Shown here in pieces: positions 10,840 through 30,224 of a stretch of 64,000 nucleotides of DNA. Below the pieces are notes generated by a model. It was not told the origin of the DNA and did no database searches. It worked only from the letters and a program-made list of their open reading frames with translations. Origin of the DNA: Amphiscolops sp. MND2022 (taxonomy: Eukaryota). The stretch spans positions 1,984,001 through 2,048,000 of the forward strand of contig OZ076409.1 of the NCBI GenBank assembly GCA_964187785.1, written 5' to 3'. The first letter of the stretch is position 1. Every line of letters begins with the position of its first letter. The position numbers were made by a program, and so were the translations under genes.

Positions 10840-11814
10840 TCTCTTAATGTCAAATATTGTCAATCCTAAATGTCCAAACTATTCCAAAGTACTAATGATG
10901 ACCAATTGGTGTCCATGCAATAAACTGTCCATCATTTCTCCAAAGTTTGAACTGATTTCTTTTGAATTGAAAACCTCTGGGGTGCAAACTTCATGAACTC
11001 AACATTTCTGACCAACTACACGACAAAGTCATACAGGTTTTTTGGACCCTAAGCTCAGTTCCACGAAAATATTGGCTACGTAGCAAATTCTGCGGACTGA
11101 TGAACAGATTCAGGTAAATCTACACATCGAAATGTCTTTTATCGTTTAATATTTCGTATAACCAGGCGATCGTCAAATAAGGTGTAAGATCTAATGGGAG
11201 TGCCCACAAATGCCTTTTGGGCAATATTAGGCACGGTCTTTTTAGTAAAGTGAAACGCGACTATTATAGTGACTCTTTTGTCAATCCACACAAACTGACT
11301 AAATTGGTTCTTTGAAAGGTCTACGAAATATTATGGTGTCAAATGGACCATTTCGTCTAGAGAACTGAACCAAAAAGTTTTTCCTGTTTTTCCGCGTAAC
11401 TGTTGTGTTCAACACATCTTTTTCTTCAGTTTAATATTCCTAAAACATTTATTTAAGATTATTTCATCGGAGCTAGAATAAAATTATTCATTTTCCGTAA
11501 CTCATTTTTCGCATTCTTTCAATTTTCAAGGCACGCTTGAAAGAATTTTAGAAGTGAACAAATTCACAACTGCGCGTCACTTGAAAGAACAAATTCCCCT
11601 TTACAAAAGAGACGCTTGCCACTTTTGCAAATAATTCTCTTTTATTCTTTTGAAAAAGACAATATGCGACGCCACTTGTGCGAGCAAAGATCTCTGAGAA
11701 GAGAACAATAGGCGCCACTTGTGCGGCCGGAGCTTCTCAATTTGAGAAAAAAAGATTATTCAAGCGAGACCAAAAGTCCCCACTTAAGAGTCTAATTCCC
11801 CTGACATAAACAAA

Positions 11815-12144
11815 AATTGCATCAGCCAACTCGGCTAGCCGAGTTAAATGACTAGCTGATGCAATTCTTGCCGACTTGTACTCGGCCATGCCTGGTCCCG
11901 AGGTTAATCCCGAACAAGGACCGAGAATGTGACGTTATTCATTCGTATCCAATAAAATGCACCGATCAATGCGATTGGTTGCACGTGCCTTTTGATTTGT
12001 ATAAAAGGGCCAACATTTCTAAAGGCGATTCATTCGCTTCTCATAGTCTTTCACCTCTCAAACAAAATCAAATCCGTCACTCTCCTCCTCTCAAAGAACA
12101 AACAAATCTCCAAAACTCCACTCACTTCGCTTTTCAGGTAAGTT
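11815..12144 (+). promoter_or_regulatory. LTR Pol II promoter: palindromic hairpin, CCAAT boxes, TATA, Inr and major splice donor
   Basis: Inverted repeat 11815-11866 containing the perfect palindrome AACTCGGCTAGCCGAGTT; CCAAT ~11949 and ATTGG ~11974; TATAAAAG 12000-12007; TCATTC 12030-12035; CAG|GTAAGT 12135-12143. Confidence 0.65.
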
Positions 12145-12504
12145 ATTTTCTTTAACTAAGAAAATAACAACAAAATTCACAATCAAAATTTCTTCCTTTT
12201 TGCTTTATTCATGTCTTCGTGACAACAAATTTACAGTCATTCGACTGAACAAAAAGTTAACCAACAAGGTTCTCCTATGCAATCATAGGGATTTATATTT
12301 TGAGCTAAACGCTCCAAATAAACCAGATTCTCGATTGAGACTTATTTTTTCTCTAAAGTACGCTATCGCGTCAAGACTTAGCAAATGCTAGTTAAAGTTA
12401 ATTCTTATCTTAACGTAAATTAAAATTAAAACCTAAAATGCATATAATCTCTTAATTTACTTTAGTCGGACCTTAAGTTCGAGTTCCCTGACAATTCTGT
12501 ACAA

Positions 12505-13195
12505 AAAAACAACTTAGCTATACGCGGTTGAATAAGACTTTTACTTTAATTAGACTCGCAAGACTTCTTCAAAGTCTTGACGTTAGACAATCTTGTCTCC
12601 TTTTGACTTAGCCACTGCTAGTCACAACATAAGTTATACTCTTAAAGCACTGCACTGAACCTTATGTTCAAGCAGCCATTGGCAAGCCTGTCCAAACACA
12701 AAACCTAGCTAAACGCTGGTTAATAAGACACTTACCTCACTTAGACTTACAAGACTTCTTCAAAGTCTTGACGTTAGACAACCTTGTCTCTTTTTCGACT
12801 TAGCAAACCTGCTAGTCCATTGCAATAGGCTAAACTCTTAGAACACTGCATTGAACCTTATGTTCAAGCAGCCATTGGCAAGCCTGTCCAAACACAAAAC
12901 CTAGCTAAACGCTGGTTAATAAGACACTTACCTCACTTAGACTTACAAGACTTCTTCAAAGTCTTGACGTTAGACAACCTTGTCTCTTTTTCGACTTAGC
13001 AAACCTGCTAGTCCATTGCAATAGGCTAAACTCTTAAAACACTGCATTGAACCTTATGTTCAAGCAGCCATTGGCAAGCCTGTCCAAACACAAAACCTAG
13101 CTAAACGCTGGTTAATAAGATTTTACTTTACCCAGACTTACAAGACTTCTTCAAAGTCTTGACGTTAGACAATCTTGTCTTCGACCTAGCTATTG
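12505..13195 (+). repeat. 196-bp tandem repeat (~3.5 units) inside the LTR, rich in hairpins
   Basis: AAACCTAG recurs at 12701, 12897 and 13093 (period 196). Each unit contains CAAGACTT-CTTCA-AAGTCTTG, GACAA..TTGTC and TGAAC-CTTAT-GTTCA stems. Confidence 0.9.
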
Positions 13196-13477
13196 CTGGT
13201 TATATAAGATAAAACTTCACAATTTAAACTCTTCAGCTTCTTATAAGCTAGAACCTCTGACAAACCTGTCATACCTTTGTCAAAAGACTTAACTAATATC
13301 ACATTCTTGTTGAGAATACTAAGACATGAAAAAGGTCTGAACAGACCAAAAATCCAATACTCTTCGTCCTAACAAATTGTTGGACGTTATATGACTCCAA
13401 AGTTCCGGCTTTTACAGTACTCAAACAACTTACCTGAATATTGCTATATTAATACATTAACGTATTTATTTTGGTGA

Positions 13478-28006: not shown

Positions 28007-28043
28007 AGCGATTATGTATTCTCTTTTAGAACCATAACTCAAG

Positions 28044-28796
28044 ATGAATTCAAGCTCATCCACCATCATCGAACAACTAGAAGACGAACGATCCCTGACA
28101 GACTCCCTAATTAACGAGTTACTTCTACTGCGACAAAAAGTAAACATCACCCCTTATACCGATGAATCAAAAGATTCGGACCGCATACACGAGGTAAACA
28201 AAAGACTTGATGCACTGGAAATGCGTATTCTACGTATAGAAAAAAAGTCAATTCCCCGGGATTGGAACTTATACGGAGTCATTTGGAGACTCGATCAGTT
28301 TACCGATATTCTAAAAAATGCGGAAAAATACGAAAAGAGTTTGTCTCATGTAAGAGCACCCTATTGTGATCCTAACAGCCTAAAAGATCTTTGCAGCCCC
28401 ATTTTCTTCTTTCAACCCTTTGGCTGCACTTTCCATCTTCGAGCTTACCCCTTTGGGATCGACACTGCTAAAGGAAATTACATGTCAGTGTGCTTGGCTA
28501 TGTGTCCCGGGCCCTATGACGAGATCCTCATTTGGCCTTTCCAAGGCGTCATTGAGATCCACCTGCTCGGCCAGGGAAACATATCCAAGCCTTACAAGCA
28601 GCTGATTGTGACAATTAACAACAACAGTGAGTGGTTCAAGAAACCCATACCTACATCTAGCAACACAGCCGTCACCATCTTGTGTTTCATCCCTCTTGAT
28701 GAACTAATGAATTCCGAAAACTCTTGGCTGAAAAACGATTCCATATTCTTCGAAGTAAAAGTCATAAACACCCTGTATCCCCCCCTTTCAATTTAA
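28044..28796 (+). CDS. TRAF-like protein: coiled coil + MATH/TRAF-C domain, no RING or zinc fingers
   Basis: VIWRLDQF; LCSPIFFFQPFGCTFHLRAYPFG; YMSVCL..PGPYDEILIWPF; FKKP; FIPLDEL; LKNDSIFFEVKV. Heptad-like N-terminus; intronless and intact. Confidence 0.9.
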   Translation: MNSSSSTIIEQLEDERSLTDSLINELLLLRQKVNITPYTDESKDSDRIHEVNKRLDALEMRILRIEKKSIPRDWNLYGVIWRLDQFTDILKNAEKYEKSLSHVRAPYCDPNSLKDLCSPIFFFQPFGCTFHLRAYPFGIDTAKGNYMSVCLAMCPGPYDEILIWPFQGVIEIHLLGQGNISKPYKQLIVTINNNSEWFKKPIPTSSNTAVTILCFIPLDELMNSENSWLKNDSIFFEVKVINTLYPPLSI

Positions 28797-28819
28797 TCAT
28801 TCTAAAACCCCGGGTGAGT

Positions 28820-30224
28820 TGTTGTGTTCAACACATCTTTTTCTTCAGTTTAATATTCCTAAAACATTTATTTGAGATTATTTCATCGGAGCTAGAATAA
28901 AATTATTCATTTTCCGTAACTCATTTTTCGCATTCTTTCAATTTTCAAGGCACGCTTGAAAGAATTTTAGAAGTGAACAAATTCACAACTGCGCGTCACT
29001 TGAAAGAACAAATTCCCCTTTACAAAAGAGACGCTTGCCACTTGTGCAAATAATTCTCTTTTATTCTTTCGAAAAAGACAATATGCGACGCCACTTGTGC
29101 GAGCAAATATCTCTGAGAAGAGAACAATAGGCGCCACTTGTGCGGCCGGAGCTTCTCAATTTGAGAACAAAAGATTATTCAAGCGAGACCAAAAGTCCCC
29201 ACTTAAGAGTCTAATTCCCCTGACATAAACAAAAATTGCATCAGCCAACTCGGCTAGCCGAGTTAAATGACTAGCTGATGCAATTCTTGCCGACTTGTAC
29301 TCGGCCATGCCTGGTCCCGAGGTTAATCCCGAACAAGGACCGAGAATGTGACGTTATTTATTCGTATCCAATAAAATGCACCGATCAATGCGATTGGTTG
29401 CACGTGCCTTTTGATTTGTATAAAAGGGCCAACATTTCTAAAGGCGATTCATTCGCTTCTCATAGTCTTTCACCTCTCAAACAAAATCAAATCCGTCACT
29501 CTCCTCCTCTCAAAGAACAAACAAATCTCCAAAACTCCACTCACTTCGCTTTTCAGGTAAGTTATTTTCTTTAACTAAGAAAATAACAACAAAATTCACA
29601 ATCAAAATTTCTTCCTTTTTGCTTTTTTCTTGTCTTCGTGACAACAAATTTACAGTCATTCGACTGAACAAAAAGTTAACCAACAAGGTTCTCCTATGCA
29701 ATCATAGGGATTTATATTTTGAGCTAAACGCTCCAAATAAACCAGATTCTCGATTGAGACTTATTTTTTCTCTAAAGTACGCTATCGCGTCAAGACTTAG
29801 CAAATGCTAGTTAAAGTTAATTCTTATCCTAACTTAAATTAAAATTAAAACCTAAAATGCATATAATCTCTTAATTTACTTTAGTCGGACCTTAAGTTCG
29901 AGTTCCCTGACAATTCTGTACAAAAAACAACTTAGCTATACGCAGTTGAATAAGACCTTTACTTTAATTAGACTCGCAAGACTTCTTCAAAGTCTTGACG
30001 TTAGACAATCTTGTCTCCTTTTGACTTAGCCACTGCTAGTCACAACATAAGTTATACTCTTAAAGCACTGCACTGAACCTTATGTTCAAGCAGCCATTGG
30101 CAAGCCTGTCCAAACACAGAACCTAGCTAAACGCTGGTTAATAAGACACTTACCTCACTTAGACTTACAAGACTTCTTCAAAGTCTTGACGTTAGACAAC
30201 CTTGTCTCTTTTTCGACTTAGCAA
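28820..30224 (+). repeat. Element A 3' LTR, left part (broken at the inversion breakpoint)
   Basis: Matches 11401-12806 of the 5' LTR and stops abruptly at ...GACTTAGCAA. Confidence 0.95.

Follow-up and report, generated by a model that had tools for sequence, protein, structure and literature searches.

We analysed a 64,000-nucleotide stretch of Amphiscolops sp. MND2022 DNA (hereafter the window; positions 1984001-2048000 of contig OZ076409.1), in which a retroelement spanning ~19.6 kb begins at position 11401. The locus is probably one recently inserted, now defective copy of a multi-copy family of Ty3/Gypsy endogenous-retrovirus-like elements carrying an env gene of the type of herpesvirus glycoprotein B (gB). 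'Probably' is meant here for our best explanation as a whole, including the expression, the counter-defence roles and the later inversion discussed below. After the 5' long terminal repeat (LTR), the gene order is gag, pol (protease (PR), a TARG1-like macrodomain, reverse transcriptase and RNase H (RT-RH), integrase (IN)), an antisense gene with two exons, two paralogous small open reading frames (ORFs), a gB-like env, an ORF of 163 amino acids (aa) and a RING-less TRAF gene, followed by the 3' LTR. This layout is that of complex retroviruses, with splicing, frameshifting and protein output predicted from the sequence. Gypsy elements with a gB-type env and Gypsy elements bearing a MATH_TRAF_C domain are already known, and the macrodomain in pol is the apparent new part, as far as can be judged from a search of the literature.

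The assignment to Ty3/Gypsy is based on several features. Direct LTRs of the form TG...CA with a target site duplication (TSD) of 4 bp were found in this focal copy and in seven of the ten other full-length copies, fetched as separate halves, that served as comparison set; the TSD is perfect in these seven, the 3' end motif was not matched in two copies and the 5' end motif in one. The pol gene has the Gypsy-type order PR-RT-RNase H-IN with RT_RNaseH_2 and Integrase_H2C2 (Pfam E-values 7.5e-25, 9e-16, 2e-15 and 4.5e-13, the class being taken from the domain models). A primer binding site (PBS) lies beside the 5' LTR, gag carries a zinc knuckle, and 3' of pol there is a separate env ORF with a gB-like class III fold, as in the gB-type env-carrying Gypsy elements. 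We do not place the element in Retroviridae, as its pol domains match Gypsy-type Pfam models and its likeness to complex retroviruses is one of organisation only.

In the window, the stop-to-stop frames between the two LTR starts gave Pfam matches to Retrotrans_gag (weak, E 4.6e-5 for gag), RT, RNase H, integrase, two halves of PF24664 and MATH. An uninterrupted pol of 1876 aa (P0001) matched a weak aspartyl protease, RVT_1, RT_RNaseH_2, Integrase_H2C2, rve and an SH3-like domain. The initial annotation of this DNA, made from the letters alone, had proposed an LTR/Gypsy endogenous-retrovirus-like element with a complex gene set, containing gag, a pol with a TARG1-type macrodomain insert, env and a TRAF/MATH gene. 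This is supported by our analysis, and all of these genes were found by Pfam and PDB sequence searches. An Rfam scan of 11401-30224 gave no family at the gathering score.

The genome searched was the 1.07-Gb assembly to which the contig belongs. Using the LTR as query, 42 scored matches were obtained out of 198 candidates, mostly as pairs 17.0-17.7 kb apart. The two LTRs of a copy are 98.5-99.8% identical in all 11 copies, and the insertions are therefore young. The initial annotation had named copies without the TRAF gene and the accessory block as the observation that would speak against it, and the opposite was found. All modules are present in each of the ten other full-length copies fetched, and macrodomain and TRAF were also found together in a family in which these two proteins are only 29-43% identical, so these modules are not one-off insertions.

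The focal copy itself is defective. Its pol has in-frame stops at 15444, 16686 and 18093, each of them absent from all ten other copies, and a frameshift in the integrase within 19214-19325. Furthermore, gag is frameshifted near codon 360 (near 14875-14890), small ORF A has one premature stop, and env has a deletion of ~456 bp at 26437 with a change of frame there; the TRAF gene is intact. Among the ten other copies, uninterrupted frames were found in six for gag (472 aa), two for pol (at least 1861 aa), eight for ORF A (185-aa frame), seven for ORF B (161-aa frame), four for env (731 aa), eight for the 175-aa frame and six for TRAF (at least 252 aa).

The ratio of nonsynonymous to synonymous substitution rates (dN/dS) was calculated between two subgroups of copies, summing over 25 pairs which are not independent of each other. 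The values are 0.19 for gag, 0.22 for pol, 0.21 for ORF A, 0.18 for ORF B, 0.16 for env, 0.11 for the 163-aa ORF and 0.18 for TRAF. Within pol, PR has 0.03 and RT-RH 0.10, and the macrodomain (pol residues 330-465) has 1.32. This means that gag, pol, the antisense gene, the small ORFs, env, the 163-aa ORF and TRAF are kept among the copies by purifying selection, with the macrodomain as the exception at ~1.3. We consider it highly improbable that the accessory ORFs, the TRAF gene and the antisense gene are functionless passengers or chance ORFs. Four of the accessory and antisense proteins are without a family match, as such a reading would have it, but it is already disfavoured by the dN/dS of 0.11-0.21 for the accessory ORFs and TRAF, by the frame-specific constraint and conserved splice sites of the antisense gene (see below), by the presence of the genes in ten of ten other copies with open frames in the sister family, and by the retention of TRAF at 29% identity in a distant family.

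The macrodomain was recognised by a phmmer search of PDB with pol residues 293-475, in which human TARG1/OARD1 (2l8r, 4j5q and others) was matched with E 1.2e-9 over ~125 residues. Two residues, the Lys in KKR and the Asp in GLD, are retained in this alignment, and we take them to correspond to the catalytic Lys84 and Asp125 of TARG1. A full HMMER search with the macrodomain gave 288 matches at E <= 0.001, the closest being short pol fragments. In public pol fragments that are 36-40% identical, the macrodomain again lies between PR and RT; these fragments share the flanking pol on both sides and keep the canonical motifs AHCISADAKMxKGFA and IGCGLD. Word-index protein searches with the macrodomain region and with TRAF returned near-identical unnamed proteins only. 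The genome query with the macrodomain gave 928 first-look candidates, 150 of which were scored. Among these 150, there were 36 matches at 90-93% identity, which represent the sister family, 22 of them in frames of at least 1835 aa, and 75 matches at 40-43% identity, 41 of them in frames of at least 1826 aa.

A number of observations speak against a working TARG1-like enzyme in the focal family. The Pfam Macro model matches pol only with E 0.19. The glycine-rich loops are altered in both focal and sister families (GKMTTTFA vs CRMGAGIA in TARG1, and IEDGLD vs IGCGLD), so that the loop glycines of TARG1 are replaced. The dN/dS of the macrodomain stands against that of RT-RH with p = 0.008 (Fisher's test on rounded per-pair means), the counts being small with ~8 nonsynonymous vs 2 synonymous changes per pair. 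When compared with a sister-family pol (P0153), the macrodomain is 89% identical, whereas PR is 97%, RT-RH 97.7% and IN 98% identical. Finally, a poly-A run of variable length over the Ala-Lys-Lys-Arg codons, which include the equivalent of the catalytic Lys (~16330-16345; the same site in L011-L029), coincides with the frame break in six of the 11 copies; possible causes are relaxed constraint, an assembly error in the homopolymer, a hot spot of mutation or slippage at this site. Because the loop glycines are lost and evolution is fast, the activity of the macrodomain is uncertain in the focal and sister families.

The same observations can be taken further: in the focal and sister families the macrodomain would be in decay or without catalytic activity, a relic that remains only as a linker, and an active enzyme would be present only in more distant families. 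We regard this as possible rather than probable. The high dN/dS, the 89% identity against ~98% for the enzymatic cores, the lost glycines and the poly-A frame breaks are what it would lead one to find, but diversifying selection would likewise agree with a dN/dS close to 1 or higher, and the counts behind it are small. Moreover, the macrodomain is in frame within uninterrupted pol in the 22 long sister-family frames mentioned above, and the Lys and Asp equivalents are retained.

TARG1-like macrodomains were also seen in other settings among public proteins. One protein (P0294) has Gypsy-type RT-RNase H-IN followed by a TARG1-like macrodomain and a Tpt1/KptA domain, and another (P0217) has RT and RNase H with a C-terminal TARG1-like macrodomain; both are possible gene-model chimeras. 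A third (P0232) is a picorna-like polyprotein with an N-terminal TARG1-like macrodomain.

The TRAF gene encodes a protein of ~250 aa from the ATG at 28044 and ends 24 nucleotides (nt) short of the 3' LTR. Its MATH domain matches Pfam with E 1e-20 in the scan of the focal copy and 8e-22 in a second scan. The protein aligns to the coiled-coil stalk and MATH domain of TRAF1 and to the MATH domains of TRAF2, TRAF3 and TRAF5 (E ~3e-13 to 1e-10). No RING or TRAF zinc finger was found by Pfam in any ORF, and the gene thus does not have the N-terminus of the canonical TRAF2-6; the open frame begins 24 residues before the first Met, which leaves no space for a RING or zinc fingers.

A genome query with TRAF recovered the focal family and ~35 sister copies (89-90% identity, frames of 257 aa), as well as many matches at 28-31% identity in frames of 342-399 aa; no close host donor was seen in this query. 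By cross-matching the tables by hand, 35 loci were found to pair a 40-43% macrodomain match with a 28-31% TRAF match on the same strand, 9.8-12.1 kb apart, the spacing in the focal family being 12.35 kb. One TRAF ORF of the distant family (L054) has a long coiled coil and MATH without a RING, and is 29% identical over 262 residues. The architecture of the sister and distant families was read from the coordinates of protein matches and one 1.3-kb fetch. Since the two modules are found together even in a family in which they are only 29-43% identical, they are old, retained parts of the lineage.

A spliced antisense gene was part of the initial annotation, and the predicted gene is borne out by its conserved splice sites, an indel-rich intron and the dN/dS of exon 2. 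The exon 2 frame (22204-21953, with the stop reaching to 21950) is open in ten of ten other copies and is open in the sister family too. In the alignment of 11 copies there are two types, which differ mainly at every third base in two blocks, with a stretch full of indels between them. This stretch is bounded by a conserved CAC/GTAAGT and a conserved TTTGTTTTAG/TGG. The two third-position blocks together with the conserved splice motifs therefore give exon 1, intron and exon 2, with a predicted product of 145 aa. The dN/dS of exon 2 is 0.15 in its own frame vs 1.6 and 2.2 in the two other frames, and its synonymous rate (dS) reaches 0.87, compared with ~0.05-0.06 elsewhere in the element. The divergence between the two types (window 21950-22560, minus strand) sets in and ends abruptly, which suggests cassette exchange between families. 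Genome-wide, the antisense exon occurs 103 times, and it is opposite to the element wherever the strand of the element is known. The genomic RNA is complementary to the antisense gene, which would explain why the intron is retained. The HBZ gene of human T-cell leukaemia virus type 1 is a spliced antisense gene of a complex retrovirus and is likewise an intron-bearing gene antisense to a retroelement, without any sequence relation to the gene described here.

Diverged copies of the antisense gene, 43-69% identical, were additionally observed in tandem arrays at C5:54208847-54217691 (L053) and C1444:537356-543611. In the L053 array, both exons lie in one open frame of 213 aa with a short spacer between them, and the neighbouring sequence looks like spacer of the element.

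The env of an uninterrupted copy (731 aa) matches PF24664 ('Monjiviricetes_fusion') with E 3e-37, and a word-index search with it gave 198 homologues, all unnamed. An AlphaFold model made from 31 sequences has a mean predicted local distance difference test (pLDDT) score of 57, with residues 90-340 mostly above 70. When this model was used in a fold search, herpesvirus gB took all of the top 50 ranks (best E 6e-11), and 104 chains were found at E <= 0.001. The global TM-score against gB is only 0.12-0.13, and such low scores are expected because the model is multi-domain and of moderate quality. A signal peptide and a transmembrane segment were read by eye.

The genome query with env gave 9088 first-look candidates, 61 of which were scored, with many uninterrupted frames of 719 aa lying ~11-13 kb from a copy of the same PBS. 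The 15-nt complement of the PBS occurs 329 times in the genome vs 0 for the control. The superfamily sharing this PBS is therefore very abundant. No transfer RNA (tRNA) gene was found at the 11 PBS-pattern loci checked, and these loci are copies of the element.

For expression, the donor in the LTR at 12138 is the only strong donor that a motif scan gave on the sense strand, and it sits downstream of a TATA-like box. An 18-nt window around it is the same in nine of ten other copies; in the remaining one a single position is different, and this does not belong to the donor motif. Acceptors consisting of a pyrimidine tract and AG were found by motif scan 10-30 nt 5' of the start codons of ORF A, ORF B, the 163-aa ORF and TRAF, although such motifs are common in AT-rich DNA. 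The downstream genes may be expressed from mRNAs spliced from the LTR donor to the acceptors just 5' of each ATG, as in complex retroviruses. The gag gene starts at the ATG at 13829, shortly 3' of the PBS, and its 3' end reads ...CCT TTA AAC TGT TAA. With gag ending there and the -1 frame open for pol, U_UUA_AAC is a candidate slippery site, and Gag-Pol would be made by -1 frameshifting at UUUAAAC. The RNA fold 3' of this site is no better than that of shuffled sequences (z = -1.5).

Concerning function, a macrodomain beside RT in the polyprotein could remove or bind ADP-ribose placed by host ADP-ribosyltransferases on proteins or nucleic acids of the element. The TRAF-domain protein would trimerise and occupy TRAF-binding partners without ubiquitin-ligase output, and this occupancy could blunt or redirect TRAF-dependent signalling or cell death in a cell that expresses the element. 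Macrodomains are a hallmark of counter-defence in several RNA-virus families. Like the macrodomains of corona-, alpha- and hepeviruses, the present one is embedded in a replicase polyprotein, the carrier here being a reverse-transcribing element. A TRAF-domain protein encoded by a fish DNA virus acts on host death and signalling adaptors, as proposed here; the two are likened by description only. We infer a counter-defence role for macrodomain and TRAF together.

The peptide-groove residues of TRAF are only partly conserved in the TRAF1 alignment, and this counts against such a role. The same holds, for the gene set as a whole, for the proteins that resemble nothing in the databases. The antisense exons have no Pfam match, and a PDB sequence search with exon 2 gave nothing. 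ORF A, ORF B and the 163-aa ORF have no family match either, Pfam giving two sub-threshold matches only, and the single-sequence AlphaFold model of the 161-aa ORF B frame (pLDDT 39.7) is unusable.

A different use of the extra modules would be in the element's own replication. In that case the macrodomain could, for example, direct the preintegration complex to ADP-ribosylated chromatin as a reader, or process nucleic-acid ends, and the TRAF/MATH protein could be an adaptor for trafficking of Gag or Env, for ubiquitin handling or for particle assembly. Such a use agrees with the covalent position of the macrodomain in Pol between PR and RT, which is the slot of dUTPase in other LTR elements (PMC6431247). 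The modules are also kept across deeply diverged families, and the altered macrodomain loops of the focal family fit binding as well as catalysis. However, rapid change of the kind seen in the macrodomain is more often met at host-conflict interfaces than in domains that do housekeeping work in replication, and RING-less TRAF-domain proteins are known to act on signalling. We think this use rather unlikely, and keep to counter-defence as the preferred reading.

With a macrodomain fixed in the Pol of a large, recently active retroelement lineage that also has a RING-less TRAF, the conflict over ADP-ribosylation would take in reverse-transcribing elements and genomes of the invertebrate type as well. 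A bolder picture, which we put forward as speculation and would not expect to hold in full, is that of a complex-retrovirus gene programme in the first reverse-transcribing elements with a macrodomain. In it, the replicase would carry an ADP-ribose eraser or reader, and this would be combined with a dominant-negative TRAF, small regulators and an antisense gene that is swapped rapidly, its two deeply diverged types being cassettes exchanged by families in an arms race. If this were true, ADP-ribosylation and TRAF signalling would be front-line defences against retroelements in this animal group. The many uninterrupted pol copies in at least three tiers of divergence, with canonical and with altered macrodomain loops, offer a natural experiment. 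An env-carrying Gypsy element can also match complex retroviruses in gene complexity, having a predicted leader splice donor, multiple downstream genes and a spliced antisense gene. For genome annotation there is a practical risk, as abundant elements of 19-20 kb with ~2.3-kb LTRs contain MATH and macro ORFs which may be mistaken for host immune genes.

The initial annotation knew of no such combination of modules among the described Gypsy/errantivirus families, and single parts of it are already published. Ty3/gypsy elements with an env of the HSV/gB type, termed ancient errantiviruses, occur across metazoans (Chary & Hayashi, eLife 2026, PMC13524379). In common with them, the present family has a Gypsy-type pol, the order gag-pol-env, a gB-like class III env (PF24664; Foldseek to gB), and many near-identical copies with LTRs and a tRNA PBS. 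Beyond them, as they are described in that paper, it has the macrodomain in pol, the TRAF gene, the spliced antisense gene, three small ORFs and a length of ~19.6 kb. The main text of the paper, to which our comparison was confined (its element tables are in the supplement), does not contain the words macro, TRAF, MATH or accessory.

MATH_TRAF_C has likewise been published, together with BIR, BCL2-like and other modules, in the giant Gypsy-like Burro/GYPSM1 elements of planarians (Arkhipova & Yushenova 2019, PMC6431247), whose authors proposed that they meddle with host apoptosis and ubiquitin systems. The two groups have in common a Gypsy-like nature, a MATH_TRAF_C domain (in a separate accessory ORF in one species of Burro host), an env and an extra domain between PR and RT. 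Burro has a polyprotein of ~4900-5100 aa with BIR, BCL2-like, ankyrin, SUMO-like and dUTPase domains and an internal F-type env. In contrast, the present family has the macrodomain in the PR-RT slot, a gB-type and separate env, and TRAF as the last gene. None of the Burro/GYPSM1 modules (BIR, BCL2-like, ankyrin, SUMO-like, dUTPase, F-type env) was found by Pfam in the focal element, and its gag and pol are of ordinary size except for the macrodomain. An 'eraser' enzyme is also reported to have been gained by an orchid Ty3/Gypsy element, in the form of an ALKB m6A demethylase domain (PMC9289625); host and activity are different, and there is no sequence relation. The Troyka paper makes no mention of macro, TRAF or MATH. 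For a macrodomain in the pol of an LTR element, which is the part of the novelty claim that stands, a full-text literature search gave no published description, as judged from titles and the starts of abstracts and with the search directed at papers rather than at Repbase, Dfam or GyDB.

The borders of the element differ from those first given, namely an LTR of 1.4 kb and an end at 30224. The LTR starts at 11401 and 28820 are 99.0% identical across 1406 bp, and the focal 3' LTR stops at 30224, where the GC content jumps. In the ten other copies the 3' LTR runs on through the homologue of window positions 12805-13786, stops at ...CGAACCTTTACA and is followed by the TSD. As these 3' LTRs reach the equivalent of 13786, the focal 5' LTR is 11401-13786, and the LTR length in the family is ~2.2-2.4 kb. 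Position 30224 is instead the breakpoint of an inversion of 29.6 kb (30225-59846). The 784 bp missing from the focal 3' LTR are found on the minus strand at 59846-59063 (99.2% identical), followed by a TAAC that matches 11397-11400. The TAAC duplication of the initial annotation is thus real (11397-11400), but the second TAAC lies on the minus strand at 59062-59059 and not beside 30224.

The inverted block has cut the focal 3' LTR at one breakpoint and the RT of a neighbouring GC-rich Gypsy element, just past YIDD, at the other, and un-inverting 30225-59846 restores both the LTR and the RT frame of the neighbour. From the TAAC pair and the split 3' LTR it follows that the element was inserted with duplication of TAAC, and that the block was later inverted or is mis-oriented in the assembly. 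We favour a 29.6-kb inversion through the 3' LTR after insertion, which would have split the focal copy. Mis-orientation of the block by the assembler is in our opinion the lesser possibility and rather doubtful. The junctions are clean at both ends, and a mis-oriented contig would look alike, with LTR and RT frame restored in the same way. Against this, the junction stretches read contain no N, and the two breakpoints have no repeat in common that could mislead an assembler, neither point being decisive.

Table 1. Positions in the window of the features of the focal copy (nt, nucleotides; strand relative to the contig).
Feature	Position	Strand	Remark
5' TSD, TAAC	11397..11400	+	Letters read directly
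5' LTR, 2386 bp, TG...CA	11401..13786	+	End set by 3' LTRs of other copies
TATA-like box in 5' LTR	12000-12007	+	
Strong consensus splice donor CAG/GTAAGT, sense strand, in LTR	12138..12146	+	Motif scan; repeated at 29557 in 3' LTR
AATAAA in 5' LTR	~12318	+	
196-bp tandem repeats x3.5 in 5' LTR	12497-13180	+	
PBS TGGTGCGACCAGTGAGGC, three bases past LTR	13790..13807	+	In all 10 other copies
gag: Retrotrans_gag, CCHC knuckle CKYCQRNGHTLQYC	13829..15222	+	
pol: PR (DTG), macrodomain, RT (YLDD), RNase H, integrase (H2C2, rve, SH3-like)	15168..20794	+	
Candidate -1 ribosomal frameshift heptamer U_UUA_AAC	15210..15216	+	gag frame; ends five bases before gag stop
TARG1/OARD1-like macrodomain, between PR and RT	16080..16562	+	PDB sequence search
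Pair of 69-nt repeats, each with long-hairpin potential	21562..21743	+	
Predicted antisense exon 2, 84 codons + stop	21950..22204	-	
Predicted antisense intron, GTAAGT...TTTTAG	22205..22359	-	
Predicted antisense exon 1, 61 codons from ATG	22360..22542	-	
Small ORF A, 134 aa from first ATG	23425..23829	+	Stop-to-stop 185 aa from 23272
59-bp tandem array, 9.9 units	23931..24488	+	
Small ORF B, 154 aa	24726..25190	+	
env, gB-type class III fusogen	25797..27478	+	Focal copy without ~456 bp at 26437
163-aa ORF: acidic, then proline-rich, then basic	27515..28006	+	
TRAF-like gene: coiled coil + MATH/TRAF-C	28044..28796	+	Intact in focal copy
3' LTR, first 1405 bp	28820..30224	+	Up to inversion breakpoint
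3' LTR, last 784 bp	59063..59846	-	Inverted
3' TSD, TAAC	59059..59062	-	

The small ORFs A and B are paralogues with ~30% identity. In the 163-aa ORF, an acidic N-terminus is accompanied by a PPPPP tract and by runs of basic residues. Four sense accessory ORFs had been listed originally; the number conserved is three. The plus-strand ORFs 21050-21349 and 22355-22813 were rejected as genes, since most other copies lack them or have them in broken form. Other minus-strand ORFs, including 23126-23404 and 24726-25013, overlap sense genes or A-rich spacer. ESM Atlas gave no usable match for the 161-aa ORF (the ORF B frame), and a lead from the 163-aa ORF to a plant PH_RDR2 cluster (score 0.75) was under the lead threshold and was dropped. 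In the focal copy, and in those copies where both frames are listed, the 163-aa ORF is in frame with env behind one stop codon (27476-27515). In one copy (L028) the two are fused into a frame of 929 aa, and either readthrough or separate expression may apply.

Of the hairpin arrays described earlier, the repeats themselves are present (196-bp x3.5, 59-bp x9.9 and the 69-nt pair), while the folding support is moderate only. The fold of 21555-21750, around the 69-nt pair, has z = -3.7 (-3.68) with 0 of 200 shuffles as good, and that of the 59-bp array has z = -2.0 with 3 of 200 shuffles as good. A segment of 359 bp (20991-21350), with short direct repeats nearby, is present in the focal copy and seven others and missing from three (L011, L017 and L027).

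The window contains further repetitive sequence. The GC-rich (50-54%) neighbour is a second Gypsy-like element, split by the inversion into 30225-34865 (minus strand) and 59847-63829 (plus strand). At 30225 (minus strand) its RT has the sequence ...AYIDDIVIATE and seems by eye to resume at 59847 on the plus strand, and a frame of 1261 aa starts at 60044. Another LTR element, at 42487-51504, has LTRs of 389 bp (42487-42875 and 51116-51504) that are 99.2% identical, with plus-strand ORFs between them. There is also a tandem duplication of ~1.1 kb, 91% identical, at 39159-41428. Finally, a frame of 208 aa at 8147-8773 (minus strand) resembles by eye the N-terminal DNA-binding part of a Tc1/mariner-type transposase.

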